From contig CAYRUS010000001.1 of the NCBI GenBank assembly GCA_964427735.1, positions 226,173 through 290,172 of the forward strand: 64,000 bases of DNA, written 5' to 3'. Positions 25,215 to 38,778 of the stretch are shown in pieces. The position numbers were made by a program, and so were the translations under genes. The stretch comes from an uncultured Gammaproteobacteria bacterium (GTDB lineage: Bacteria > Patescibacteriota > Microgenomatia > UBA8517). Positions within the stretch are counted from its first letter, which is position 1. Each line of letters starts with the position of its first letter. Under the pieces are notes generated by a model, which saw only the letters and a list, made by a program, of their open reading frames with translations, had not been told where the DNA came from and did not search any database.

Positions 25215-25559
25215 GAGTATATAATACCCCTACTTTCTGACACAATCAATTCCTAATAGATTGTAAACCCAAAATATAAGTAAGAGTTAATACGAGAAAT
25301 AATTATGGAGATGAACAATATGAAGATAGTTACTCACCTGCTTTTTGCGTATGCAGGAGCAGGTGCTGGTTTCCTAAAAATACTAATAATAAGTCTAATG
25401 AGCATGGGCAATTTTGCAGCTCCATAATGACAGAGTGCTTCTCTAATGTCAAGCTCAATTTGCTTTTTTTGATTTCTGGAATTAAGTCTTTTTATCTTGT
25501 AAAATACTATAAGAGTTAATTACCCCAATTGCTGCTCGAATTGGTAATTTTAGAAAAAT

Positions 25560-26663
25560 ATGCAGTCTAGGCCTTTAAATAGAAACCTCCACAAAGCCAA
25601 CAAAGCAAAAAAGGATGAATTCTATACTCAACTCACAGATATAGAAAAAGAGCTCAGGCACTACAAAGACCAGTTTAAAGGTAAAGTGGTTTACTGCAAT
25701 TGTGATGATCCTTTTGAAAGCAATTTTTTCAAATATTTTGCATCTAGTTTCAATAGCTTGGGGCTAAAAAAATTAATAACAACAAGCTTCAGCGGCTCAC
25801 CAATAACTGGAAAACAGCTATCTCTTCTGGACATGGAAGGACTAAAGCCAGAGGGCAAGCAGCCTTTTAAGATTGTAATAACAGAAGTACCAGACAAAAA
25901 TGCAGATGGTGCAGTTGATATTGCAGATGTGGAATGGCTTTTAAAACACGACGGCAATACCTCAACTCCACTAAAAGAAAATGGAGACTTTAGGAGTGAA
26001 GAATGCATTGAGCTTTTAAAAGAATCAGATATTGTTGTCACCAACCCACCTTTTAGCTTATTTCGCGAATATGTAGCACAGCTGGTCGAGTATGATAAAA
26101 AGTTTTTGATAATTGGAAATTTGAATTCGATTACTTATAAAGAAATATTTAAGTTAATTAAAAACAATCAATTATGGCTTGGGTATAATAACGGACATAA
26201 AGTTTACATGGTTCCAGATGATTATGAACAAAAAAATATTTTTATTGGTGAGGATGGGAAAAAATATGCAAAGATGGGAAATACCGGTTGGTTTACAAAT
26301 CTTGATGTCAGTAAAAGACATGAAATTCTTACGCTGTATAAGAAATATAGTCCAGAAGAGTATCCCAAGTATGCAAATTATGATGCAATAGAAGTATCTA
26401 AAGTGTCAGATATCCCAATGGATTATGAGGGAGAAATGGGAGTACCTGTAACATTCTTGGAAAAATATAATCCAGACCAATTCGAGATTATCGGTTCAAG
26501 TAGTAATTTATCAAATCCAATAAAAACTCCAAAAGGATTAGTTTATCGATATACAGACCGTAATGGGTATGTCCGACAGGCAGCAAATGAGCGTTTTGCT
26601 TTACCAGATGGCGATACATGGAGACGAATTTATGACCGGATTGTGATTAAAAAAATAAAATAA
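25560..26663 (+). CDS. N6-adenine DNA methyltransferase, EcoRI-methylase-like family
   Basis: The catalytic motif IV VVTNPPF is present. The N-terminal KDEFYTQ...VVYCNCDDPFESNFFKYF resembles the EcoRI-methylase family N-terminus as I recall it. No cognate restriction endonuclease gene was recognised nearby. Confidence 0.65.
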   Translation: MQSRPLNRNLHKANKAKKDEFYTQLTDIEKELRHYKDQFKGKVVYCNCDDPFESNFFKYFASSFNSLGLKKLITTSFSGSPITGKQLSLLDMEGLKPEGKQPFKIVITEVPDKNADGAVDIADVEWLLKHDGNTSTPLKENGDFRSEECIELLKESDIVVTNPPFSLFREYVAQLVEYDKKFLIIGNLNSITYKEIFKLIKNNQLWLGYNNGHKVYMVPDDYEQKNIFIGEDGKKYAKMGNTGWFTNLDVSKRHEILTLYKKYSPEEYPKYANYDAIEVSKVSDIPMDYEGEMGVPVTFLEKYNPDQFEIIGSSSNLSNPIKTPKGLVYRYTDRNGYVRQAANERFALPDGDTWRRIYDRIVIKKIK

Positions 26664-26736
26664 GGTATAGGATTATTAATCAGACACAAAAAAGTCAACG
26701 GAGTTAAAGCATGAAGATAAGTACAAAAGTAAATTT

Positions 26737-29520
26737 ATGAACGAAAACACAGGAACAGTAAGTCCACTATTAAAGAACTTTTTTGAAAACTTCTTGTCTA
26801 CAGAACTAGAAAAAGAAGATATCTCTGACGAATATTTAACTCTTTTGAAAATATTATGGCTTAGTTTTGACGAGATTATTACAAAAACTAAAATTACAAG
26901 GCGTATTTATACACTACAACTTATTGAAAAATATCTTATTAATAGCGAGTACCGCAAATCCGTCGATGAAACAGAATTGCCGAAAACTGACGTTTTTCTT
27001 GAGTCTCAGGGTTCTGACACACCTAAAATTAAACTAAAGAAAATCAATATTGTAAATTTCCGAGGATTTAGAGCAAACTCCGATGGTACTGGAAGAAAAA
27101 TCTTTTTCAACGATAAAGCAAGCTTATTTTTTGCACCTAATGGCGGAGGTAAAAGTAGTCTTTGTGAAGCTTTAGAATGGACACTTACCGGTGATACTTC
27201 AGAGCATGTGCAACGTAGCACCGAATCGACAGACACTTATTTTCAAAATAGGGATATTGGTGAACCCAGCTATAAGAAAACTAAAATTGATATGCATGAA
27301 GGGTTCAATCCTGACATCCCTAACATTGCTTTTGATAGATGCTTTTTAGAGAAAAATAGAATCGAAAAGTTTGCCAAGATTGCTACGCAAAAAGGTGTTG
27401 AAGTTCAAAATATACTGGGTGAATTATTTGGGCTTACAGAGATCGTAGATTTTTTCAAAGAGTTTGGACAAGACTTATTTCCCACACCTAATGAAAAAGG
27501 TGAAAGAGAAAATTGGCAGACTTGGCTAGATTGGGAGGTAAAAAAGCGTGAATTGGAAAAGGGTTTAGAAGAGTCAAAAAGAGAAGAAATGACAGCTTTT
27601 GAGGAATTTAACAGACTTCTTGATAACAAAAAATACGATGATAAGAAAAAAGAGATAGAAGAAGAAATTAAGAAACTAAAAAATGAACTAGAGTCTTTAA
27701 GCGTGGATAATAGTACTGAGTTTTCAAGCGAAGATTTTTTGAAGATCGTTGATGAATTTCTTTATAAATTAAAACAGTGGAAAGAATGTAAGAATGAAAT
27801 TGAAAAAAATGCAGCCAATCTGAATTTCGAAAGCTTGTATCAGACTGCAAGTAAGATTTTTCAAAACAATCAAAACATAAGTGAATGTCCTCTCTGTGAT
27901 ACACCAATTACACAGAATGGCGGTCTACTTTCAAAGCATAAATGTGTAGTTACCGATCCTAGAGATAAAACCAAGTCAGAGCTAAAAAAATTGGAAGCCT
28001 TAACTGCATTGAAAAGCAAAAAATCAAACACCGAGTCCGATATTAGAAACCATTTCGCAAAATTTAAAGATGAGTGGACAAAAGTTCACTCAAACTTAAA
28101 AGATGAAAATTGGTCCGTTATATCAAATAATGTCTCTAATCCTGAAATACCAAATATCAATACACAAAGTATCGACTCACTTGTATATGATGACTTTGAG
28201 GCATTTGTTGATAGTTGCGAAAAAGCGTTAAATCAAGACTTCTCTCAAATAAAAGAGGTGGAAAAAATCATCTCTTCATATAAGCACAAAAGGCAAGAGT
28301 TAAAGTCAAGGAAGCAAGAACAAAACGAAAAAATTAACAAACTAAGTGAAACTCTCGATAATCTCGAAACAGCATATGAAACTTACTCGAATAAGAAAGC
28401 TATATGCGAGAAAGGCAATGTGAGATTGGAAAAGTTAAAAAAACAATCTAGAAACTCGGGTGTTTTTAAGAAACTGCTAGACGAGTACACTAAGCTATAT
28501 GCCTCACTTCATGACTTTCTTACATCCGCCATACTGACAGAAGCAAAAGATATTGACAGCTTAGTGACTGGTTTTTATCGTGCACTAAACCTTCACGACC
28601 ACGATGGTGAGATTGTTAAAGTTATAAAATTTCCAAAGAAAATTCAGGATGATTTTTGTCTCATTTATAAGAAGGACGAAGAAAGCATATGTAATGCGTT
28701 GCAGGTATTAAGTGAGGGACATTTAAAAACCCTCGGATTGGCAGCTTTACTTGCAAGAGCAGCTAGATTAAATACTTCGTTACTTGTTTTTGATGATGCT
28801 ATAAACGCAATAGATTCAGATCACAGGGACAACATAGCTCACCTTCTTACTGGAAGGTTTGGGGATGATCAGGGTGTGTTGGCCTTTGGAAACAAATGGA
28901 GGCAGATAAAAGATTACTTGGGCAATTGCCAATTTATTATTACCTCCCATGACCGTTTCTTTGACGAAAAGATCGCTAACCTTTTCGAAAAAGACAACCA
29001 AACAAGATATGTTCTTTATTGCAGTCAGAATGGAATCGATTTTTGCGAAAGAGGCACCCCGGCAAATTTTGAGAAGAAAATAGAGGACTACCTAAATCCA
29101 GCTACTCAAGATATTCGATCCGCAATATTTTACTGTCGTATTTGGCTAGAAGATATTCTCTTTAACATTGCAATTCATTTTAGAAAACCGGGTAATAATA
29201 AGCGGATTGAGTTCGAGAACATCATGGATAGGAGAACTAAATCTTTGAAAAACCCAGAATTAATTGTGCTTCTGGATAAGTTGGTATCTAATTTAAACAA
29301 CAAGGATGCATCAGACGAATATAAACAAATTGCCAGTATATTGGAACAAATTAAACAGGAAAATGATGGGAAATATGTTTGGTTCTTTGAAATATTAAAC
29401 CAAGAGAGCCATTATCGAAGGTTTGACCACGTAGATGTCTCAAATGCACCTACAAGCAAAGAGGTAGAGACTATTTTCGAGAATATTCAAAAGATACATA
29501 AGTTGTATTCAGGAATATAA
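26737..29520 (+). CDS. Rad50/SbcC/RloC-like ABC-type ATPase with long coiled-coil, CxxC hook-like motif and an unknown C-terminal domain
   Basis: 927 aa. Walker A FAPNGGGKSS (about residue 135), coiled-coil-rich middle with CPLC (about residue 385), signature-like LSEGHLKTLGLAALLA, Walker B LLVFDDA, H-loop ITSHD, then a 170-aa C-terminal extension. Confidence 0.7.
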   Translation: MNENTGTVSPLLKNFFENFLSTELEKEDISDEYLTLLKILWLSFDEIITKTKITRRIYTLQLIEKYLINSEYRKSVDETELPKTDVFLESQGSDTPKIKLKKINIVNFRGFRANSDGTGRKIFFNDKASLFFAPNGGGKSSLCEALEWTLTGDTSEHVQRSTESTDTYFQNRDIGEPSYKKTKIDMHEGFNPDIPNIAFDRCFLEKNRIEKFAKIATQKGVEVQNILGELFGLTEIVDFFKEFGQDLFPTPNEKGERENWQTWLDWEVKKRELEKGLEESKREEMTAFEEFNRLLDNKKYDDKKKEIEEEIKKLKNELESLSVDNSTEFSSEDFLKIVDEFLYKLKQWKECKNEIEKNAANLNFESLYQTASKIFQNNQNISECPLCDTPITQNGGLLSKHKCVVTDPRDKTKSELKKLEALTALKSKKSNTESDIRNHFAKFKDEWTKVHSNLKDENWSVISNNVSNPEIPNINTQSIDSLVYDDFEAFVDSCEKALNQDFSQIKEVEKIISSYKHKRQELKSRKQEQNEKINKLSETLDNLETAYETYSNKKAICEKGNVRLEKLKKQSRNSGVFKKLLDEYTKLYASLHDFLTSAILTEAKDIDSLVTGFYRALNLHDHDGEIVKVIKFPKKIQDDFCLIYKKDEESICNALQVLSEGHLKTLGLAALLARAARLNTSLLVFDDAINAIDSDHRDNIAHLLTGRFGDDQGVLAFGNKWRQIKDYLGNCQFIITSHDRFFDEKIANLFEKDNQTRYVLYCSQNGIDFCERGTPANFEKKIEDYLNPATQDIRSAIFYCRIWLEDILFNIAIHFRKPGNNKRIEFENIMDRRTKSLKNPELIVLLDKLVSNLNNKDASDEYKQIASILEQIKQENDGKYVWFFEILNQESHYRRFDHVDVSNAPTSKEVETIFENIQKIHKLYSGI

Positions 29521-29585
29521 TCCACTGTGAAGAATCAACTTCATACTGTTAGCAAAATTATAAAATCTCCTTTAAGGTAATTAAG

Positions 29586-29936
29586 TCAAAATATCAAAAT
29601 TAATAGAGATGACATTATTATAATCGGAAAAATTAAGTGTAGTAAAAGTATGAAAAATAAACCACTATTTCCTTTATTGTAATATGTTTTATATAACAAT
29701 TCTGGAAAGCCAGTAGTAACAAAACCAGCCAGAAAGAAAATTACAGACACAACAACACCCACAGTCCGATAAGACGAATCACTAGTCAAAAGGATTGTGG
29801 CTTGTGAGAAAAAGTAATACTCAAAAGAGGTTGTATTTTTCTCGAAAAATTCTCCCAGAAGCTCGAATATATATGCCAGACCAAGAAAGAATCTTGCCAA
29901 TGGCCTGGTGAATGCTGATTTTGCGTGTTTTTCCAT
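29586..29936 (-). CDS. small membrane protein, hypothetical
   Basis: 116 aa with 3 predicted TM helices, convergent with the ATPase gene. Confidence 0.35.
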   Translation of the reverse strand: MEKHAKSAFTRPLARFFLGLAYIFELLGEFFEKNTTSFEYYFFSQATILLTSDSSYRTVGVVVSVIFFLAGFVTTGFPELLYKTYYNKGNSGLFFILLLHLIFPIIIMSSLLILIF

Positions 29937-30082
29937 ACTTTAATTATAATAAAAAGCCACATTACTGCACATTTTGAAATATGATTTCTTCAATACACAC
30001 ACCCTCCAGATGATATAGCTTCACACCCCTCACTTTTTGTAATCACAATTGACTGCTGGGACTGCACATAGTTTAATGAATT

Positions 30083-30445
30083 ATGGCATTGGATGGTGAA
30101 GATATGGATCAAATTGAAGAACTTTCAAGGAGTATTTCAGGAGCTAGAGAAGAGAGTTCAAGACGTAATCATGAAATTGAGTTAAGAATTTTAGAAAATG
30201 AGTTGGCATTGTTAGGTAATACTATTCGTGAACGGAAAGCTACAATTCCAGGGTATTCACGAGAACTTAATAATTTTATTAAACTAATTGCAAGTTTTAA
30301 AAAAGCACTTGATACAGAAATAAGAAATAAATATCCTTCAATAGATAGACATAGTTTCAGCATGAGATTTAATGAATTATATGAACCTGGAATTAATAAA
30401 ATTGATAAGCATGTGTTTAAAATAGCAACTACCGGAGGAAACTAA
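30083..30445 (+). CDS. hypothetical protein
   Basis: 120-aa ORF, charged and helical, sitting between the ATPase and the DUF262-HNH gene. Confidence 0.4.
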   Translation: MALDGEDMDQIEELSRSISGAREESSRRNHEIELRILENELALLGNTIRERKATIPGYSRELNNFIKLIASFKKALDTEIRNKYPSIDRHSFSMRFNELYEPGINKIDKHVFKIATTGGN

Positions 30446-30534
30446 TAATTATTCAAACTTCGTATGGTGTCCAACATCCTGTACTCTATTTATAAAATAA
30501 TTGACACTAATTATTTCATGAGTTTTAATTAAAT

Positions 30535-30795
30535 ATGACTGACACCAAAATGCTTCAAGCCATTCTTGATGGACAAAGAGCTATAAAAGAAGAGTTGAAA
30601 GATGATATAAACTCTGTTCGTAAAGAAGTCAATAGATTACATAAAAAAGCCGATGAAGGTTTCAGAATTGTTAATAACAGATTGGATAATATTGGAAAAA
30701 GTGTAGCTTTTCTTGAGGATGATGCTCCAACTCGTGAAGAACACAATAGACTGGAAAAACGAGTAATAAAAATTGAAAACAAGCTTCAAACTTAA
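30535..30795 (+). CDS. hypothetical coiled-coil protein
   Basis: 86 aa with heptad-like charged repeats, on the same strand as its neighbours. Confidence 0.4.
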   Translation: MTDTKMLQAILDGQRAIKEELKDDINSVRKEVNRLHKKADEGFRIVNNRLDNIGKSVAFLEDDAPTREEHNRLEKRVIKIENKLQT

Positions 30796-31091
30796 TCGAT
30801 TCACAACTCTAAAAACTATATCAACACTGTAGAAACTCCCTATAATTGCCTAAATATAGAGATATTCGGTATAATACAAGCAATTAGGAAAATTGGACTA
30901 AGTAAATTGTTTTTAAAAATTACATTAGTCATTGCGAGTGAAACAAAGCAATCCAGAGTATCAGCATAGAAAGCTTGATCGCAACGGAAGTTTTTCAAAC
31001 TCCTCGCGATGACAGGAGTAATTGTCATCCATGTTTTCCATGACAAGAGGAGTAAGTGTCGGTGAAGGAATAAGGCTATAAATTAATAAAT

Positions 31092-32195
31092 ATGAAAATT
31101 CAATTGCACAAATTAACAGTACGCGAAGTTGTAGATGGTTACGTTGACAATGATGAAGAAGGTGTTGTGGGGTTTGGTGGGAAGCTTGATATACGACCTA
31201 AGTATCAACGTGAATTTGTATATAAAGACAAACAACGTGATGCAGTTATTGATACCGTCAAAAATGGTTTTCCCTTAAATGTGATGTATTGGGTAGTGCG
31301 TGATGATGGTGGGTATGAAGTACTGGATGGACAACAAAGAACAATTAGCCTTGCCCAATATATAAATGGTGACTTTTCTGTTGAATTTAACGGCAGGCTA
31401 GCTATGTTTCACAACTTAACCACCGAGGAGCAAAACCAGATATTAGATTATGAGCTAATGATTTATTTCTGTGAAGGTACGGACAAGGAGAGGTTGGATT
31501 GGTTTAGGATAATTAACATAGCAGGAGAAAAGCTAACAGACCAAGAGTTAAGGAATGCTGTTTATACAGGTCCATGGCTAACCGATGCAAAGCTCAAATT
31601 CAGTAAAACAAATTGCGTAGCATACCTTCTGGCTACCGATGGTGGTACTCTACTTTCTGGCTCACCATTAAGACAGGAATACCTGGAAACTGCAATCTCC
31701 TGGATAAATAATGGTGAAATTGAAGAATATATGGCCATACATCAGCATGATGAAAACGCTGAGGAGCTTTGGAACTACTTCCAGGAACTGATTTCCTGGG
31801 TAAGAAAAACTTTCCCAAACTACAGAAAAGAGATGACAAACGTGAACTGGGGAGAGCTTTATAATCAATTTAAAAACGAGCAGTTTAATCCAGAAAAACT
31901 TGAGTCGGAAATCAAAGTCTTGATGCAGGACGAGGATGTTACCAGAAAGTCTGGTATTTACCCTTATGTCCTAACAAGAAAAGAAAAGTTTTTAAACATC
32001 AGAGCATTTACAGACAAGATGAAACGGGAAGCTTTTGAGAGGCAAAACGGTATTTGCCCCTTTTGTAAAAATACGTTTGAGTTGGAAGAAATGGAAGCTG
32101 ATCATATCACCCCATGGCACGAAGGTGGAAAAACAGTTTCAGAAAACTGCCAAATGCTTTGCAAAGAAGACAATAGAACAAAGGCAGGAAAGTAA
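31092..32195 (+). CDS. DUF262 (ParB-like, DGQQR) - HNH endonuclease fusion, GmrSD-like candidate type IV restriction/defense nuclease
   Basis: N-terminal PKYQREFVY...LDGQQRTISL is the DUF262 hallmark. The C-terminal CPFCKN...ADHITPWHEGG...NCQMLCKEDNRTK is an HNH His-Me finger with two Cys pairs. Confidence 0.75.
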   Translation: MKIQLHKLTVREVVDGYVDNDEEGVVGFGGKLDIRPKYQREFVYKDKQRDAVIDTVKNGFPLNVMYWVVRDDGGYEVLDGQQRTISLAQYINGDFSVEFNGRLAMFHNLTTEEQNQILDYELMIYFCEGTDKERLDWFRIINIAGEKLTDQELRNAVYTGPWLTDAKLKFSKTNCVAYLLATDGGTLLSGSPLRQEYLETAISWINNGEIEEYMAIHQHDENAEELWNYFQELISWVRKTFPNYRKEMTNVNWGELYNQFKNEQFNPEKLESEIKVLMQDEDVTRKSGIYPYVLTRKEKFLNIRAFTDKMKREAFERQNGICPFCKNTFELEEMEADHITPWHEGGKTVSENCQMLCKEDNRTKAGK

Positions 32196-32963: not shown

Positions 32964-33482
32964 TCACCTACTTAAATCTATATTCCTCTGCACAAAGGGA
33001 GAAAAATAACCCTTGTATTTTTCCTGAAGTTCAGGTCTTTTCCAATCGTGATTAGTAACTTCTCTCCTACAATTTGCACTTTCACAAGTACATTCAAACA
33101 AAATTCTTTTTTCTGTCTTTTGTGAACAAGTCATCACATAATCAAATGTTATTTCTTCACCAGACTTAATATCTCTCATAGCCACTAGCATTATTTGTCC
33201 AAAAATACCAGCATTTGGTTCACAAGAATGATTAAACCAATCAGCATCATCTGTTTCAGAAACATCTTTTGGTCCTATGAACATATCTTCGTCAATTCCA
33301 AGAGCAAGATATCTAACACTTTCTGGCAACATGTCTCTTTCACTTCTTTCCATAATATGACCGCCAAATACAGCTATTAGTTCGTCCTTTTTGATATCTT
33401 CTTTTGCAAACACACCAGTACCATGAGATTCTGAGGTTCTTGGATCACACTTATTACTTAACCAGTTGTTTTTTAAGATCAT
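32964..33482 (-). CDS. SET-domain protein (putative lysine methyltransferase) with a Cys-rich post-SET region
   Basis: GTGVFAKEDIKKDELI...NHSCEPN...GEEITFDY are the SET motifs. CTCESANC follows as a post-SET cysteine cluster. Confidence 0.75.
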   Translation of the reverse strand: MILKNNWLSNKCDPRTSESHGTGVFAKEDIKKDELIAVFGGHIMERSERDMLPESVRYLALGIDEDMFIGPKDVSETDDADWFNHSCEPNAGIFGQIMLVAMRDIKSGEEITFDYVMTCSQKTEKRILFECTCESANCRREVTNHDWKRPELQEKYKGYFSPFVQRNIDLSR

Positions 33483-33486
33483 ACTT

Positions 33487-34044
33487 TTACTTTCTTTTTG
33501 CTACAACAATAAGCCGCATACTATCATTAAAACCAGTGCAGGTATATAAAGTTAAAGTCTCATCTTCTGTGGGAGCAATAACTTCTAATTCATTTGGGTA
33601 AACTTCTTTAATCTCTTGGACTTCATAGTCAAACCAATCATCATCAGTCATAATATAAATTTCTGTTCCAAGCTGTACTTCCCTTAAAGGTAAAAAAAGT
33701 CCCTCCCTAGCGTGGGCAAAGACCACTTGATTACCCACTTCTCCAGGATAACCTGAACCTTCTCCCCAACCCGCAGAATCAGAAAACACCTCCCAATATC
33801 CATTAACAATTCTAGATCTTTTAATATCTAAGTTGACACCTAAATTAGGAATAACAACTTTGATAGGAGATTTTTTCTCCTCATCAATTTCCATTTCAAA
33901 TCCAGACACCTCAACTGGTTCTTCTTTAAAAGTGTATTCAGCAGAGACATCTGTTGTACTTTCTGGAAAATGACCTAAAAATAATATTCCGCCTAAAACA
34001 AGAAGAGCAATCCCAAAACCGATCTTTCCCCATTTCATAGGCAT
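33487..34044 (-). CDS. sortase family transpeptidase
   Basis: N-terminal TM anchor, His in VVFAHAREG, catalytic Cys in TLYTCTG (the TLxTC motif), and a downstream Arg (RLIVVAKRK). Confidence 0.75.
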   Translation of the reverse strand: MPMKWGKIGFGIALLVLGGILFLGHFPESTTDVSAEYTFKEEPVEVSGFEMEIDEEKKSPIKVVIPNLGVNLDIKRSRIVNGYWEVFSDSAGWGEGSGYPGEVGNQVVFAHAREGLFLPLREVQLGTEIYIMTDDDWFDYEVQEIKEVYPNELEVIAPTEDETLTLYTCTGFNDSMRLIVVAKRK

Positions 34045-34082
34045 ATTTTAACATCAAAGGAGCATTTTTCTAGTCTAAAACT

Positions 34083-35255
34083 TTATGCAGGAAGTTCTTC
34101 CTCTGCAAAAGTTTTACCAATTACAGTAAGACCTAATGTAAGGAAAAGTAGCCCTGCCCAAAAAATCAAAGGGTTATCAGTAGGAACACCACTTGTAGGA
34201 GATAAACCTAAAACTTCACCAACTTTTTTAGAAACATCTGCTGCCGCAATAATCAATCCTCCTCCTGGTTTGTCTTCTTCTTCGCCATTTCCATTTTCCC
34301 CTCCGTTACCAGGGTTTTCTTCTCTTGGTTTTTCTGGCTCACCATCACCAGGAACAACTACCTTACAACAAGGAACCAGTACATTGCCAAAATTTATTTT
34401 TTCGTTTTTAATCAAGAAATTAAAATCAATATCACCTGTAGCAATACTTACATCACCAATATTATTTTTGGCTATATTTTTACCTGTATTTAGACTCCAA
34501 TTAGCATTATTATAAATATCTGCATTGAAATCAGTATTTATGTTGAATAAGTCTATATGTGTTAGAGTTACATGATTGACAGAATATGCCCCGTTCCCAT
34601 TAATAACTATATTATTTGACGAGCTATTTTTGGCTACTTCTATATCTGAAGTATTAATTCTTTTGTTGACTACTGCACCGTAAACTTTTATATTTCCTGT
34701 TTTAATGTTTACATCTCCATTGTTTCCAGATACTTTATTGTAACCTGTATTAGCATTACCATTTATGTTATTTGTAATGTTTGCATTTTGAGATACATTA
34801 ACATCAGTTACATTCTTTTTATCTGAATTAACAGCATTGTGAGAATTACTACCATTATTTGATACATTTATAGATGAACCCTTGTCTGTACAGCACTCTT
34901 CCTTTACGGTTGAGTGGTTGGCCTCGTTAACAACTTCAATATTTTGACTGGAATCACCTGTTACAATTGTAGATTCACCATTTGTTGTATTGTTGATTTC
35001 ATTTCCACCTGTGTTTGTTGTTGTAGAGATATTGTTTTCAATGTCTACTGAATTTGATTGCTCAACCGTAGTTGATGATCCAGAAGTAACATTGACTTCG
35101 TTACTGGATCCACTGCCATTATCTGAAATTACTATTTCTTCTGCCATTGCAATCACGCTTGGCTCTGGAGAGACGAAAATAAATGTTCCAGATACAATAA
35201 CACTTGCTATAAGTAAATGAGCTAATATTTGTTTTGCAAAATCTTTAATGAACAT
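34083..35255 (-). CDS. secreted Asn/Thr/Gly-rich repeat surface protein (paralog A) with C-terminal TM tail
   Basis: Signal peptide, repeated N-x-N-x-x-TG-x-N/TGD motifs, CC dipeptides, and a C-terminus of ...EVLGLSPTSGVPTDNPLIFWAGLLFLTLGLTVIGKTFAEEELPA (LSPTSG plus hydrophobic tail). Confidence 0.6.
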   Translation of the reverse strand: MFIKDFAKQILAHLLIASVIVSGTFIFVSPEPSVIAMAEEIVISDNGSGSSNEVNVTSGSSTTVEQSNSVDIENNISTTTNTGGNEINNTTNGESTIVTGDSSQNIEVVNEANHSTVKEECCTDKGSSINVSNNGSNSHNAVNSDKKNVTDVNVSQNANITNNINGNANTGYNKVSGNNGDVNIKTGNIKVYGAVVNKRINTSDIEVAKNSSSNNIVINGNGAYSVNHVTLTHIDLFNINTDFNADIYNNANWSLNTGKNIAKNNIGDVSIATGDIDFNFLIKNEKINFGNVLVPCCKVVVPGDGEPEKPREENPGNGGENGNGEEEDKPGGGLIIAAADVSKKVGEVLGLSPTSGVPTDNPLIFWAGLLFLTLGLTVIGKTFAEEELPA

Positions 35256-35264
35256 ATTAATTAT

Positions 35265-37397
35265 TTAAGACTTAACTCCAACTAGGACTTTTTTGAGTTT
35301 ATCCAGTCCATAATATGCTCCTGCGAGGACTATAAATGTAAAAGGTAAAGCAAGGTTAATAGTTACCTTCTTTTTATCGCTTTGTGTACCTAAGACAGAA
35401 GGTTTTGAATCACTCTCACCTGCTAGAGCTAATTTATCTCCAGGATCATTATCAACATTTAGATTGCTAACTGCTGATAAATAATTTTTCTCAGATTTTT
35501 TATTGTTGGTATCATCAGTAGATAGAGTATTTATAACTGCAAGGTAATCTCCTTCTGCATCCAAAGAAACACTTGTATCATTTACAAAACTGCTTTGTGA
35601 TTCTGTATGAGAATTTGATGTATTGCCTCCTATTGCTTTATCAGTTGAATTATTACCTTTATCTGAATTATTATTTGCTTCCCCTTGTACAAAATCACCA
35701 ATCCAACTTCCGAAGACGTTAATTACATTTACGAATAGTCTTCCCCCTCCAGTAATGTTTGTATTTACAAAATTAACAATGTTAGCAACAATGTTCGCAT
35801 CACCTGTTTTTATTGTACTGTTCCCGCCTGTATTATAGTTTGCATCATTTCCGCCTGTGTTTGCAGATAACTGAAGGTTATTTCCGACATTGGCATTATT
35901 TACTTGGGTAATGTAGTTGTTATTTTCAATGTTAGCCTCACCTGTATTTGTACTACCTGCACCGTTACCAGAGTTTACTAACTTGACGTCTCCGCTTTCT
36001 GATACATCAAACTCTAAGTCTTCTGAACTTGCAACAGAACCGTCAAAGCCCATTATTTTACCAATCCATTTTCCGGCTTCATTTACTAGTACTAAAAACC
36101 AATCTCCTGAGACAAAATTCATATTTCCAAAGTTAACTACGCTAGCTTCAACATTTGTGTCTCCTGTCACTACAGTACTGTTTCCGCCTGTATTAAAACT
36201 TGCATTATTGTTCCCTGTAGTTGCATCAATTACCAATGTATTGTCAATATCAGCATTATTAAACTGAGTTATATTGTTGTTATTTTCTATATTAGCCTCA
36301 GTTGTATTATCAGAATTTGTACCGTTTCCTGTATTTTTAACTGTGGTGTCTGCAGTACAGCACATTGATGATGGGAATATTATATTACCGATCAAATCAC
36401 CAAATACATTAACCACTGCATAAATAACCCCGCCTTCTACATTAGTGTTTGTAAAGTTAAGCACATTTGCTGCCACATTTGCGTCACCTGTAATAATTAC
36501 ATTATCTCCTCCTGTATTAAAGCTTGTGTCGTTGTATCCAGAGTTTGCCGTAAGAACCATTGTGTTATTTAGGTTTGCATTATTTACTTGAGTTGTATCA
36601 TTGTTATTTGTAACCTGGACACTTCCCGTGTTTTCGCTGTTTGCTCCGTTTCCTTCATTTGAAATATCAACTGTTCCCACACATCCGTACACACATGTGC
36701 CTTTTGAAAAATCTAACACATAATCACCTGATTGATTGTCCATAATATTAAATTCATAAACACTAACTCCTGCTAGATTTGAATTCAAAAAGTTAATTAT
36801 TGTTCCTGTGGAATTTGCATTACCAGTTACAATTACATTGTCTCCCCCTGTATTAAAGCTAGCAGAATTACCACCTGTAGAAGTGGAGATATCCATATTG
36901 TTGTTCACATCTGCATTATTTGTTTGAGTTGTATTTGAGTCATTAACAACATTGACAGAACCATTATTTTCGCTGTTTGCTCCGTTAGCTTCATTAGCAA
37001 CAGATACACTTGGACCGCTTGTTGTTGTAGCTACACCAGTACCTCCACTAGCATTCTGATTGGCAATATTAATGAGTGATCCGTTTGCATTTGCATCTGA
37101 TGTATTTATAGATGAATCTCCCTGCTGTCCGTTTTGAGATTCCCCACCAGATGAGACAGTTGGTTTACTTTCTGATGAAGGTAGTGGCGATTCTGGTGTT
37201 GAGTTGTCAGAATTGTTGTTATTGTGCACAGGAGGCGGAGTTGGTGTAGATGGTGGTGTTGGTTTTGGCGGTGCTGTTGGTGTTGGTGGTGGTGTTGAAT
37301 TTGTTTGAGCCATAACACTACCCATAGGTGAAGTAGCAACAAGCATCGCTACTGTTACTATAACTGCTATCTGTTTTTTGTAATTTACTTTTATCAT
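35265..37397 (-). CDS. secreted repeat surface protein (paralog B), 710 aa, with Pro/Thr linker and four ~80-aa repeats
   Basis: Signal peptide, then a PPTPTAPPKPTPPSTPTPPP linker, then four repeats of pattern NxGNGxxSxN...TQxNNAxxxN...TGxNxAxFNTGG...TGDANV...NFxNxN. C-terminal hydrophobic segment plus KKVLVGVKS. Confidence 0.65.
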   Translation of the reverse strand: MIKVNYKKQIAVIVTVAMLVATSPMGSVMAQTNSTPPPTPTAPPKPTPPSTPTPPPVHNNNNSDNSTPESPLPSSESKPTVSSGGESQNGQQGDSSINTSDANANGSLINIANQNASGGTGVATTTSGPSVSVANEANGANSENNGSVNVVNDSNTTQTNNADVNNNMDISTSTGGNSASFNTGGDNVIVTGNANSTGTIINFLNSNLAGVSVYEFNIMDNQSGDYVLDFSKGTCVYGCVGTVDISNEGNGANSENTGSVQVTNNNDTTQVNNANLNNTMVLTANSGYNDTSFNTGGDNVIITGDANVAANVLNFTNTNVEGGVIYAVVNVFGDLIGNIIFPSSMCCTADTTVKNTGNGTNSDNTTEANIENNNNITQFNNADIDNTLVIDATTGNNNASFNTGGNSTVVTGDTNVEASVVNFGNMNFVSGDWFLVLVNEAGKWIGKIMGFDGSVASSEDLEFDVSESGDVKLVNSGNGAGSTNTGEANIENNNYITQVNNANVGNNLQLSANTGGNDANYNTGGNSTIKTGDANIVANIVNFVNTNITGGGRLFVNVINVFGSWIGDFVQGEANNNSDKGNNSTDKAIGGNTSNSHTESQSSFVNDTSVSLDAEGDYLAVINTLSTDDTNNKKSEKNYLSAVSNLNVDNDPGDKLALAGESDSKPSVLGTQSDKKKVTINLALPFTFIVLAGAYYGLDKLKKVLVGVKS

Positions 37398-37458
37398 TTT
37401 ATTAATTTTTTATAATCTTATTTTTTTATTTTTTCTTTTAAATTTTTGTTTTGGTTAA

Positions 37459-37499
37459 GTAGGGGTATCCACCGAAGTGCGGGTAGACAATCACCCTAC
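37459..37499 (-). other. stable stem-loop with UUCG tetraloop (minus-strand RNA) between surface-protein paralogs C and B
   Basis: GTAGGG...CCCTAC outer stem enclosing CAC-TTCG-GTG on the minus strand. It sits 17 nt after the stop of 37516..38778 and is not followed by a U-tract. Confidence 0.35.
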
Positions 37500-37515
37500 T
37501 GTTCCAAAACTTCCA

Positions 37516-38778
37516 TTACTTTGACAAACCGATCATTCCCAAAAAACCACTGAAATCAAAGTCCCATTCAAATTCCATATCAGAATCAAATGGCCATTCA
37601 AAGTCTGGGAAATCAAAGCCGCCAATTACGTTACTGTTAGCAGTATTTTCTACTGTAGCACTAACGTTAGCATCACTAGTAATGATTGCTGGGTCTGATC
37701 CATCTACATCACCAGTATTTGAATTTGCATCATTTTTACCGGTACTTGCATCAAGATCTTCCAGATCATTGTCTAGATCTGCATCATTATCTTGGTCGTA
37801 AGCGATAAGACTATCAAGTCTTAGGTCAATTAAGTTTGAACCACCTAATCTTCCGTCATCAGCTCCGTTACCAGAAATTTTTGCAAGAATATCCCAACCG
37901 CATCCGCAGTCGATATTTGCACTGTTAAAGTTAACAGCGTTCAAAACGTTTGCTGTTACATCAGCTGCACCTGTTTGTATAACAACTTCTCCTCCAGTAT
38001 TGAAGTTTGCATCGTTATAACCTGTTGCAGCATCAACATCAACATCATTGTCGACATCTGCATCGTTATCTTGATCAATGCTGTTTTCTTTATCCAGTCT
38101 TGCGTCAATATCATTCCAAGAACCTGCTCCGTTTCCTAAGATTCGGAAGCTTGCTGTTGGATTATCATCGCCGTTTCCGCCAATTCTTGCAAAGTTGCTA
38201 TTAGCTAAAGTTGCTAAAGTAACTCCTACAGTAGAATCACCGGTAAGCACAACAACACTGTCATTTCCATCGAAACTTCCAGTGTTAAGGTTGGCATTAT
38301 TGCCTCCTGTTTTAGCTTTTACATCGACATCATTGTCGACATCGGCGTCGTTGTCTTGATCAATGCTGTGTAAAACATCAGATCTCAAATCAACATAGTT
38401 TTGAGAATCTGCACCGTTGCCCTCAATAAGGACATCAGCGTCTTGACCTTCACAGCATTCTACATCAGCAACATTTGTGTTAACTGAGTTAACAATTCCA
38501 ACATTGACATCTGCATTACCAGTAAGAACACCTACCTCACCGCCAGTATTGTATTTGGCGTTGTTATTTCCTGTGGAAGCATCAACGTCTACATCATTGT
38601 CGATATCGGCATCATTGTTTTGGTTTACAGTTGTCTCTGTGGAGTAGTTTACGCTTGCATCATTTACGCTACCTACACCATTTCCAGTTATTTGAACTGT
38701 TGTGGCACCTAGTACCGGAAGTACAGCATAAGCCATTAACCCTGTTGCTGCTGCTGCTGAAACTAATTTTTTATACAT
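37516..38778 (-). CDS. secreted repeat surface protein (paralog C), Asp/Asn-rich repeats, first gene of array
   Basis: Signal peptide. About five repeats of IDQDNDADVDNDVDV-x-A-x-TG-x-N-x-AN-x-NTG...TGxAxV with conserved Cys pairs (ECCEG, CGCG). Strong SD AGGGGGTGA sits 8 nt upstream of the ATG. Confidence 0.65.
   Translation of the reverse strand: MYKKLVSAAAATGLMAYAVLPVLGATTVQITGNGVGSVNDASVNYSTETTVNQNNDADIDNDVDVDASTGNNNAKYNTGGEVGVLTGNADVNVGIVNSVNTNVADVECCEGQDADVLIEGNGADSQNYVDLRSDVLHSIDQDNDADVDNDVDVKAKTGGNNANLNTGSFDGNDSVVVLTGDSTVGVTLATLANSNFARIGGNGDDNPTASFRILGNGAGSWNDIDARLDKENSIDQDNDADVDNDVDVDAATGYNDANFNTGGEVVIQTGAADVTANVLNAVNFNSANIDCGCGWDILAKISGNGADDGRLGGSNLIDLRLDSLIAYDQDNDADLDNDLEDLDASTGKNDANSNTGDVDGSDPAIITSDANVSATVENTANSNVIGGFDFPDFEWPFDSDMEFEWDFDFSGFLGMIGLSK

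Follow-up and report, generated by a model that had tools for sequence, protein, structure and literature searches.

The 64,000-nucleotide stretch of DNA analysed here (the window) encodes a protein in which a DUF262 domain is joined to an HNH nuclease domain. The question raised by this locus is whether the protein (R) acts alone against modified DNA, as a preliminary description had proposed, or is the restriction endonuclease of a restriction-modification (R-M) system. We consider it likely, with a probability of about 75%, that R is the restriction endonuclease of a mobile, two-gene, type II-like R-M cassette whose methyltransferase partner (M) lies at 25560-26663, and that the pair has been split in the window by a 4.4-kb insertion.

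Domain architecture of the nuclease

The ORF listing of the window contains a single reading frame at 31092-32195 on the plus strand, with an ATG start and 367 aa. Pfam placed GmrSD_N/DUF262 (PF03235) at aa 34-158 (E=1.2e-18, 68.4 bits vs a cut-off of 33.2) and HNH (PF01844) at aa 322-364 (E=2.7e-11, 43.9 bits vs a cut-off of 21.4). HNH_5 likewise scored above its curated cut-off, and no match to DUF1524 (PF07510) was found in R at E<=0.01. The protein divides as follows.

31092-31571, plus strand: DUF262 domain of R, ParB/Srx-like, aa 1-160 (Pfam, conservation, AlphaFold2, Foldseek)
31572-32003, plus strand: all-helical middle domain of R, aa 161-304 (AlphaFold2 helices at 161-295, conserved residues)
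32004-32195, plus strand: zinc-ribbon-like HNH of R, aa 305-367 and the stop codon (Pfam, alignment with 4H9D, conservation)

The preliminary description had given the same reading frame, a DUF262 domain with PKYQREF and DGQQR motifs in the N-terminal half and a classical HNH at the C-terminus; on all of these points it was borne out. Both domains were significant and DUF1524 was absent; PKYQREF lies at aa 36-42, DGQQR at aa 79-83, CPFC at aa 322-325, DHITPW at aa 337-342 and ENCQMLCKEDN at aa 351-361. Within the DUF262 domain, the motifs are YQR (aa 38-40), DGQQR, N142 and QELRN (aa 151-155), and the key residues of the HNH are C322, C325, D337-H338, N352, C353, C357, D360 and N361.

Predicted structure and conserved residues

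Conservation was scored in 37 diverse family members that are 35-58% identical to the window R. An AlphaFold2 model of R from 37 diverse members had a mean pLDDT of 92.6 and a pTM of 0.71, and consisted of an alpha/beta part (~aa 1-160), an all-helical part (~aa 161-300) and a beta-beta-alpha HNH (aa 305-367). Foldseek found no close structural relative of R in the PDB. The best whole-chain match of the model was BrxU (7P9K; E=2.3e-3, TM-score 0.21), and further matches were to Gme HNH, to CDP- or CTPγS-bound ParB (ParB-CDP, 6SDK), to Noc and to sulfiredoxin, those of the N-terminal domain (ParB, Noc and sulfiredoxin) being weak, with E of about 1e-2. A profile search of PDB sequences could align BrxU to R only over aa 36-71 (E=0.004) and grouped the HNH of R with Gme HNH, type II-D Cas9, a group II intron maturase and McrA. 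No solved homologue of the middle domain was found by Foldseek or by the PDB profile search; R194, Q195, W204, W236, F241 and W253 are its conserved residues among the 37 members, and this domain is a candidate region for DNA binding or dimerisation.

The nuclease motifs are intact. In an alignment with the Gme HNH nuclease 4H9D, D337, H338, N352 and N361 of R fall on D53, H54, N68 and N77; by mutagenesis, H54, N68 and N77 are reported to be critical and D53 to be less important (PMC4619093). D337, H338 and N361 are conserved in at least 90% of the 37 members, and the columns that are invariant throughout the set are P36, Q39, R40, D79, G80, Q82, R83, N142, Q151, E152 and N155 in the N-terminal domain and W236, F241, C322, G346 and N352 in the rest of the protein. 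Because they are invariant in members that are 35-58% identical to the window R, the motifs of the ParB-like nucleotide pocket are under selection as strong as that on the nuclease active site. The invariant nucleotide-binding motifs suggest NTP gating of R, which is a plausible property of the enzyme.

Of the putative zinc ligands, C322, C325 and C357 are present and the fourth position is D360 in the window R; among 120 close relatives, 93 likewise have Asp at this position, and Cys or His occurs in other proteins. In four family members (P0142, P0225, P0228 and P0230), the second cysteine of CxxC has disappeared together with the two C-terminal zinc cysteines, and the D-H pair and both Asn residues have been kept. 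As far as sequence can tell, the zinc ribbon seems to be dispensable in some lineages of the family.

The nuclease gene travels with an EcoRI-family methyltransferase gene

The partner of R lies outside the coordinates covered by the preliminary description and is absent from it.

25560-26663, plus strand: M, EcoRI-family (PF13651) N6-adenine DNA methyltransferase, 367 aa (Pfam, PADLOC, NPPF motif)

M matches Pfam EcoRI_methylase over aa 9-365 (E=1e-143) and PADLOC MTase_II (E=3.4e-128), and the catalytic NPPF motif is visible in its translation.

Association of the two genes was assessed in 80 related loci, each from a different GTDB species and chosen by similarity of the nuclease. A PF13651 methylase gene was found on the same strand in 77 of them, upstream of R in 76 and downstream in one. 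Among the three loci without it, one begins at a contig end and another has only 1.2 kb of upstream sequence; in the latter and in the third, a RhuM-like gene lies directly upstream of R. The distance from the stop codon of M to the start codon of R, measured between called ORFs in the 77 pairs, clusters between -4 bp (an ATGA overlap) and +22 bp. In loci retrieved by exact-protein look-up, a PF13651 gene was upstream of R on the same strand in all cases and usually 2-3 bp away. A small HTH (C-protein-like) gene precedes M in some related loci.

The pairing persists at 37-39% identity, in the Flavobacterium phage laban6-1 and in E. faecium plasmids, and the L. agilis plasmid pLa3_1 has four annotated genes only, encoding MerR, M, R and Rep. 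M-R fusion proteins occur among the cluster representatives, namely P0143 (688 aa, with EcoRI_methylase, GmrSD_N and HNH) and P0258 (319 aa), and each could be either a genuine fusion or an artefact of a frameshift in the ATGA overlap. No recurrent third gene was seen in the 80 related loci, where 92 of 102 flanking same-strand ORFs were singletons. Strict synteny of M and R, the fusions, the tiny plasmids and the absence of a third gene therefore argue for a self-contained mobile two-gene R-M cassette and not for a solitary type IV enzyme.

Two of the loci show the pair in particular surroundings. In the cultured Flavobacterium phage vB_FspS_laban6-1 (L096, 2278-4640), M and R overlap by 4 bp and are located between tail genes and a block of hypothetical genes. 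In L009 (2684-7790), a cassette of M, a Bro-N gene and R is flanked by genes for an FtsX permease and an ABC_tran ATPase; its apparent insertion into a transporter operon illustrates mobility.

R was more conserved than M in 98% of pairwise comparisons among the 80 loci (median identity 66% vs 54%, correlation 0.59), a figure biased by the picking of loci through nuclease similarity, and in distant plasmid copies R and M were about equally conserved. It is safe to state that R is at least as conserved as M, which is atypical for type II systems, in which the nuclease is usually the faster-evolving partner.

An insertion separates the pair in the window

M and R are separated in the window by 4428 bp containing a gene for an SMC-like ATPase and three small ORFs. 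The features between the two genes are as follows.

26737-29520, plus strand: SMC/AAA_23-type ATPase, 927 aa (Pfam AAA_23, 1.8e-13; PADLOC LmuB-like, 2.9e-16; PHROG SbcC-like, 3e-16)
29586-29936, minus strand: small ORF, 116 aa, no Pfam or PADLOC match
30083-30445, plus strand: small ORF, 120 aa, no Pfam or PADLOC match
30535-30795, plus strand: small ORF, 86 aa, no Pfam or PADLOC match, marginal PHROG hits of unknown function
30846-30875, plus strand: promoter-like site TTGCCT-18-TATAAT from a consensus scan whose counts equal the shuffled expectation
31008-31029, plus strand: hairpin followed by T-rich sequence, upstream of R, from a scan whose counts equal the shuffled expectation

A homologue of the 927-aa ATPase was absent from all 80 related M-R loci, and the predicted protein is best regarded as inserted cargo and not as a conserved part of the cassette. 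No LmuA-type partner for it is visible in the window, and its C-terminal ~180 aa gave no family match; on an argument of 'guilt by embedding', it may be a defence gene in its own right. No similarity to the other loci was seen in the 300 bp that precede the window R, and M and R may be transcribed separately here.

Inserts of 0.6-3.6 kb are present at the M-R junction in seven other loci among the 77 GTDB pairs, and several of them encode RhuM/Bro-N-like proteins. Because these seven loci carry inserts there, the insertion in the window is the biggest example, relative to the 77 measured pairs, of a variation that recurs.

The loci with junction inserts are L009, L010, L017, L019, L028, L060, L063, L077 and L088, and L009 and L010, both from the exact-protein look-up, have one inserted gene each. 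RhuM/Bro-N-like genes lie directly upstream of R in L009 (5118-5999), L028 (4949-5992), L030 (189-836), L039 (3561-4523) and L088 (4848-5525). A decayed second methylase gene in the gap of the window was ruled out, as tblastn of more than 80 methylases against 26600-31120 returned nothing.

The plus-strand block at ~25.5-32.2 kb has minus-strand genes on both sides and a GC skew opposite to that of the adjoining sequence. A search for mobile-element ends or flanking repeats around 25.0-32.5 kb gave only short repeats at chance level. In the 345 bp upstream of M there is an 18-nt imperfect inverted repeat (25302-25428; 83% complementary, arms 91 nt apart), which flanks an ORF of 35-40 aa called in Logan assemblies. 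Unlike some related loci, the window has no C-protein-like HTH gene upstream of M. Downstream of the cassette, the minus strand at 32964-38778 has genes for a bacterial SET-domain protein (Pfam 3.9e-18), for a sortase and for three large repetitive proteins that are rich in Asn/Thr and carry signal-like segments at the N-terminus; this gene content would suit a Patescibacteria-like host with a small genome.

Size, spread and classification of the family

The PADLOC model PDLC03418 matches R end to end (1-366 of 372, E=1.2e-143), and its label, "REase_II", is a database classification, here of a predicted protein. Matches of R to the GmrSD-related defence models NsnA (aa 30-235), PD-T4-2_A and HEC-05 were partial and far weaker.

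A word-indexed search of 5.8 billion proteins scored at least 8000 homologues of R. The best 120 of these are 363-381 aa long and 76-100% identical to R over the full length; they come from Patescibacteria, Chloroflexota and Deltaproteobacteria and carry the names "HNH endonuclease" or "DUF262 domain-containing protein". HMMER searches of cluster representatives gave 533 clusters at 50% identity with E<1e-30, most of those listed being full-length. At least 600 GTDB species, at one genome per species, have an R homologue; among the matches listed, identity is 63-79% and the taxa are Patescibacteria, Proteobacteria, Chloroflexota, Bacteroidota, Firmicutes, Actinomycetota, Atribacterota and a Methanobacterium. 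Full-length copies are also found on 44 plasmids and in a few phage records.

NCBI routinely labels such neighbours 'DUF262 domain-containing protein' and 'adenine-specific methyltransferase EcoRI family protein', and REBASE lists a 'DUF262 domain-containing protein' of B. animalis as a putative type II REase (PMC13091528). Searches of the literature and the PDB returned no biochemical study or solved structure of any member of the R family, and the literature search found no characterised DUF262-HNH enzyme with an EcoRI-type methylase. The combination of a DUF262-HNH protein with an EcoRI-type methylase is thus a widespread and already catalogued cassette, of which the window R is an ordinary new member.

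Relation to M.EcoRI and the recognition site

The genuine M.EcoRI, whose gene adjoins that of 'type-2 restriction enzyme EcoRI' on an E. coli plasmid, shares ~49% identity with the window M. Its identity to the 77 linked methylases ranges from 44 to 59%, against 41-99% among those methylases, and all members lie at roughly the same distance (~50%). Methylases of the EcoRI family have GAATTC, CAATTG, RAATTY and AATT as their targets. Because the identity to M.EcoRI falls within the spread of the family, a GAATTC-like or AATT-core site is a reasonable guess for the window M. RAATTY methylation has been noted in Campylobacter (PMC7785942), and the supplements of Blow et al. 2016 contain GAATTC predictions for some methylases and no assignment usable for the window M.

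Depletion of k-mers was examined in the 64-kb window and in carrier loci pooled to 774 kb, and no palindrome was specifically depleted. The observed/expected ratio was 0.71-0.79 for GAATTC and 0.97-0.98 for AATT, neither of which is distinctive, and the scans showed generic palindrome and CpG avoidance only.

Proposed mechanism and alternatives

In sequence and gene context, R and M show features expected of a type II R-M system, in that a methylase is present in conserved synteny, the nuclease matches a curated REase model and the nuclease motifs are intact. In such a cassette, M would mark an adenine within a short site of the host DNA, possibly one with an AATT core like GAATTC, and R would bind unmethylated copies of the site on incoming DNA by means of its ParB-like N-terminal domain and helical middle domain. 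By analogy with ParB, BrxU and SspE, the N-terminal domain probably binds a nucleotide triphosphate and acts as a switch, through dimerisation or a conformational change; this switch would license cutting by the C-terminal HNH, in which H338 would serve as the general base and N361 would hold the metal. Because the characterised DUF262 nucleases (GmrSD, BrxU and SspE) all respond to modified DNA, cleavage blocked by methylation would be without precedent for DUF262.

We tentatively raise a wider possibility, to which we would give less than even odds, that the R family represents a type of restriction enzyme with a new mechanism. The m6A of the partner methylase would be judged by a ParB-like NTP switch or clamp in place of a conventional recognition domain, and this switch would license the HNH, making the enzyme either an NTP-gated 'type II' nuclease or an Ssp-like one. 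If true, this would explain why R is at least as conserved as M across phyla.

A simpler cassette, and a rather doubtful one, would have R as a classical NTP-independent type IIP HNH enzyme, the DUF262 domain serving as a scaffold for DNA binding or dimerisation and its nucleotide pocket being vestigial. Mg2+ is by definition all that a type II enzyme requires, R carries a type II label in PADLOC, and the HNH module resembles small autonomous nucleases such as Gme HNH. The invariance of YQR, DGQQR, N142 and QE..N in members that are 35-58% identical is, however, hard to explain for a vestigial site.

The same invariance of the NTPase motifs is compatible with a third possibility, which we consider improbable, in which R depends on M for activity: the DUF262 domain would read the m6A placed by M on self DNA, its NTPase would be stimulated, and the HNH would nick or cut unmarked DNA. 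The precedent is SspE, a DUF262-nuclease effector that depends on the modification of its own host and couples NTP hydrolysis to nicking. Strict co-occurrence of M and R fits this logic as well as it fits classical R-M, and conservation of R at least equal to that of M is unusual for classical type II nucleases. However, the HNH of R belongs to a different subfamily from the DUF1524 of SspE, ordinary type II systems have this same gene order and such C-protein-like regulators, and PADLOC and REBASE both classify such proteins as type II.

Least probable is the reading of the preliminary description, a stand-alone GmrSD-like type IV enzyme whose DUF262 domain senses modified (hydroxymethylated, glucosylated or methylated) phage DNA and whose cleavage is stimulated by NTP: the DGQQR-bearing DUF262 domain, the structural match to BrxU, the weak PADLOC matches to HEC-05, PD-T4-2_A and NsnA and the sensing of modification by all characterised DUF262-nuclease fusions speak for it, but R lacks DUF1524, has 367 aa against the ~580 aa of BrxU with a low TM-score and similarity confined to a short segment, is classed by PADLOC as REase_II and not REase_IV, and has a tight link to a methylase in 77 of 80 loci, with frequent translational coupling or fusion, and one would not expect a modification-dependent nuclease to be bound so closely to a methylase.

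The type II-like cassette is therefore the reading that we retain. The gene is real and its DUF262-HNH architecture and motifs had been read correctly; its function had been partly misread, as the methylase linkage, the fusions and the REase_II classification weigh against modification dependence, and its novelty had been overstated, since the supposedly distinct architecture has a dedicated PADLOC model, thousands of homologues in hundreds of clusters and routine NCBI labels.

Significance

For the genome at hand, the window gene matters little, being another copy of a mobile R-M cassette that is very common. The family, present in at least 600 GTDB species, offers the sole instance we found of a DUF262/ParB-like domain that is accompanied by a methylase and presumed to work in conventional restriction. 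Its biochemistry would tell whether ParB-type nucleotide switches serve classical restriction and whether EcoRI-type methylases have a second, unrelated nuclease partner. If M shares the site of M.EcoRI, R would be a structurally unrelated counterpart of EcoRI. Interest at the level of the family would be higher if NTP gating or an EcoRI-equivalent specificity proved true.

Comparison with known systems

With GmrSD, BrxU and SspE, R shares an N-terminal ParB/Srx-like DUF262 domain containing DGQQR and a C-terminal His-Me finger nuclease. The nuclease of R is a PF01844 HNH of zinc-ribbon-like type, however, whereas theirs is DUF1524, and R has 367 aa whereas they have roughly 580-700 aa. GmrSD and BrxU are both solitary, unlike R, which has a methylase as its partner in 77 of the 80 related loci. 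Judged from its predicted sequence and its gene neighbourhood, R fails two features that define the GmrSD family, the DUF1524 domain and the solitary state.

R has the CxxC...DH...N...CxxC/N pattern of the zinc-ribbon HNH nucleases (Gme HNH 4H9D, Cas9 HNH and McrA), but its fourth zinc-ligand position is Asp and not Cys, and its HNH is fused behind ParB-like and helical domains. The N-terminal domain resembles ParB and Noc in predicted fold and in motif logic, with an arginine-rich GxxR-type box and a QE..N box, and its Foldseek matches to them are weak (~1e-2). The likeness to these CTP clamps is one of predicted fold and motif, and ParB proteins are without a nuclease domain of the kind found in R.

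R agrees end to end with the PADLOC model PDLC03418, and REBASE treats methylase-adjacent DUF262 proteins as putative type II enzymes (PMC13091528). The REBASE entry Ban8145ORF124P of B. animalis, a database prediction that carries the DUF262 label, is assigned a different site, RTCAGG.

The EcoRI system resembles the present one in being a two-gene plasmid-borne cassette, and its methylase is the ~49% identical relative of the window M. The neighbour of M.EcoRI on the E. coli plasmid examined is 'type-2 restriction enzyme EcoRI' and not a DUF262-HNH protein. R.EcoRI is a PD-(D/E)XK enzyme, so it and the DUF262-HNH nuclease should be unrelated. Gene order differs as well, being R then M in the EcoRI system and M then R here.
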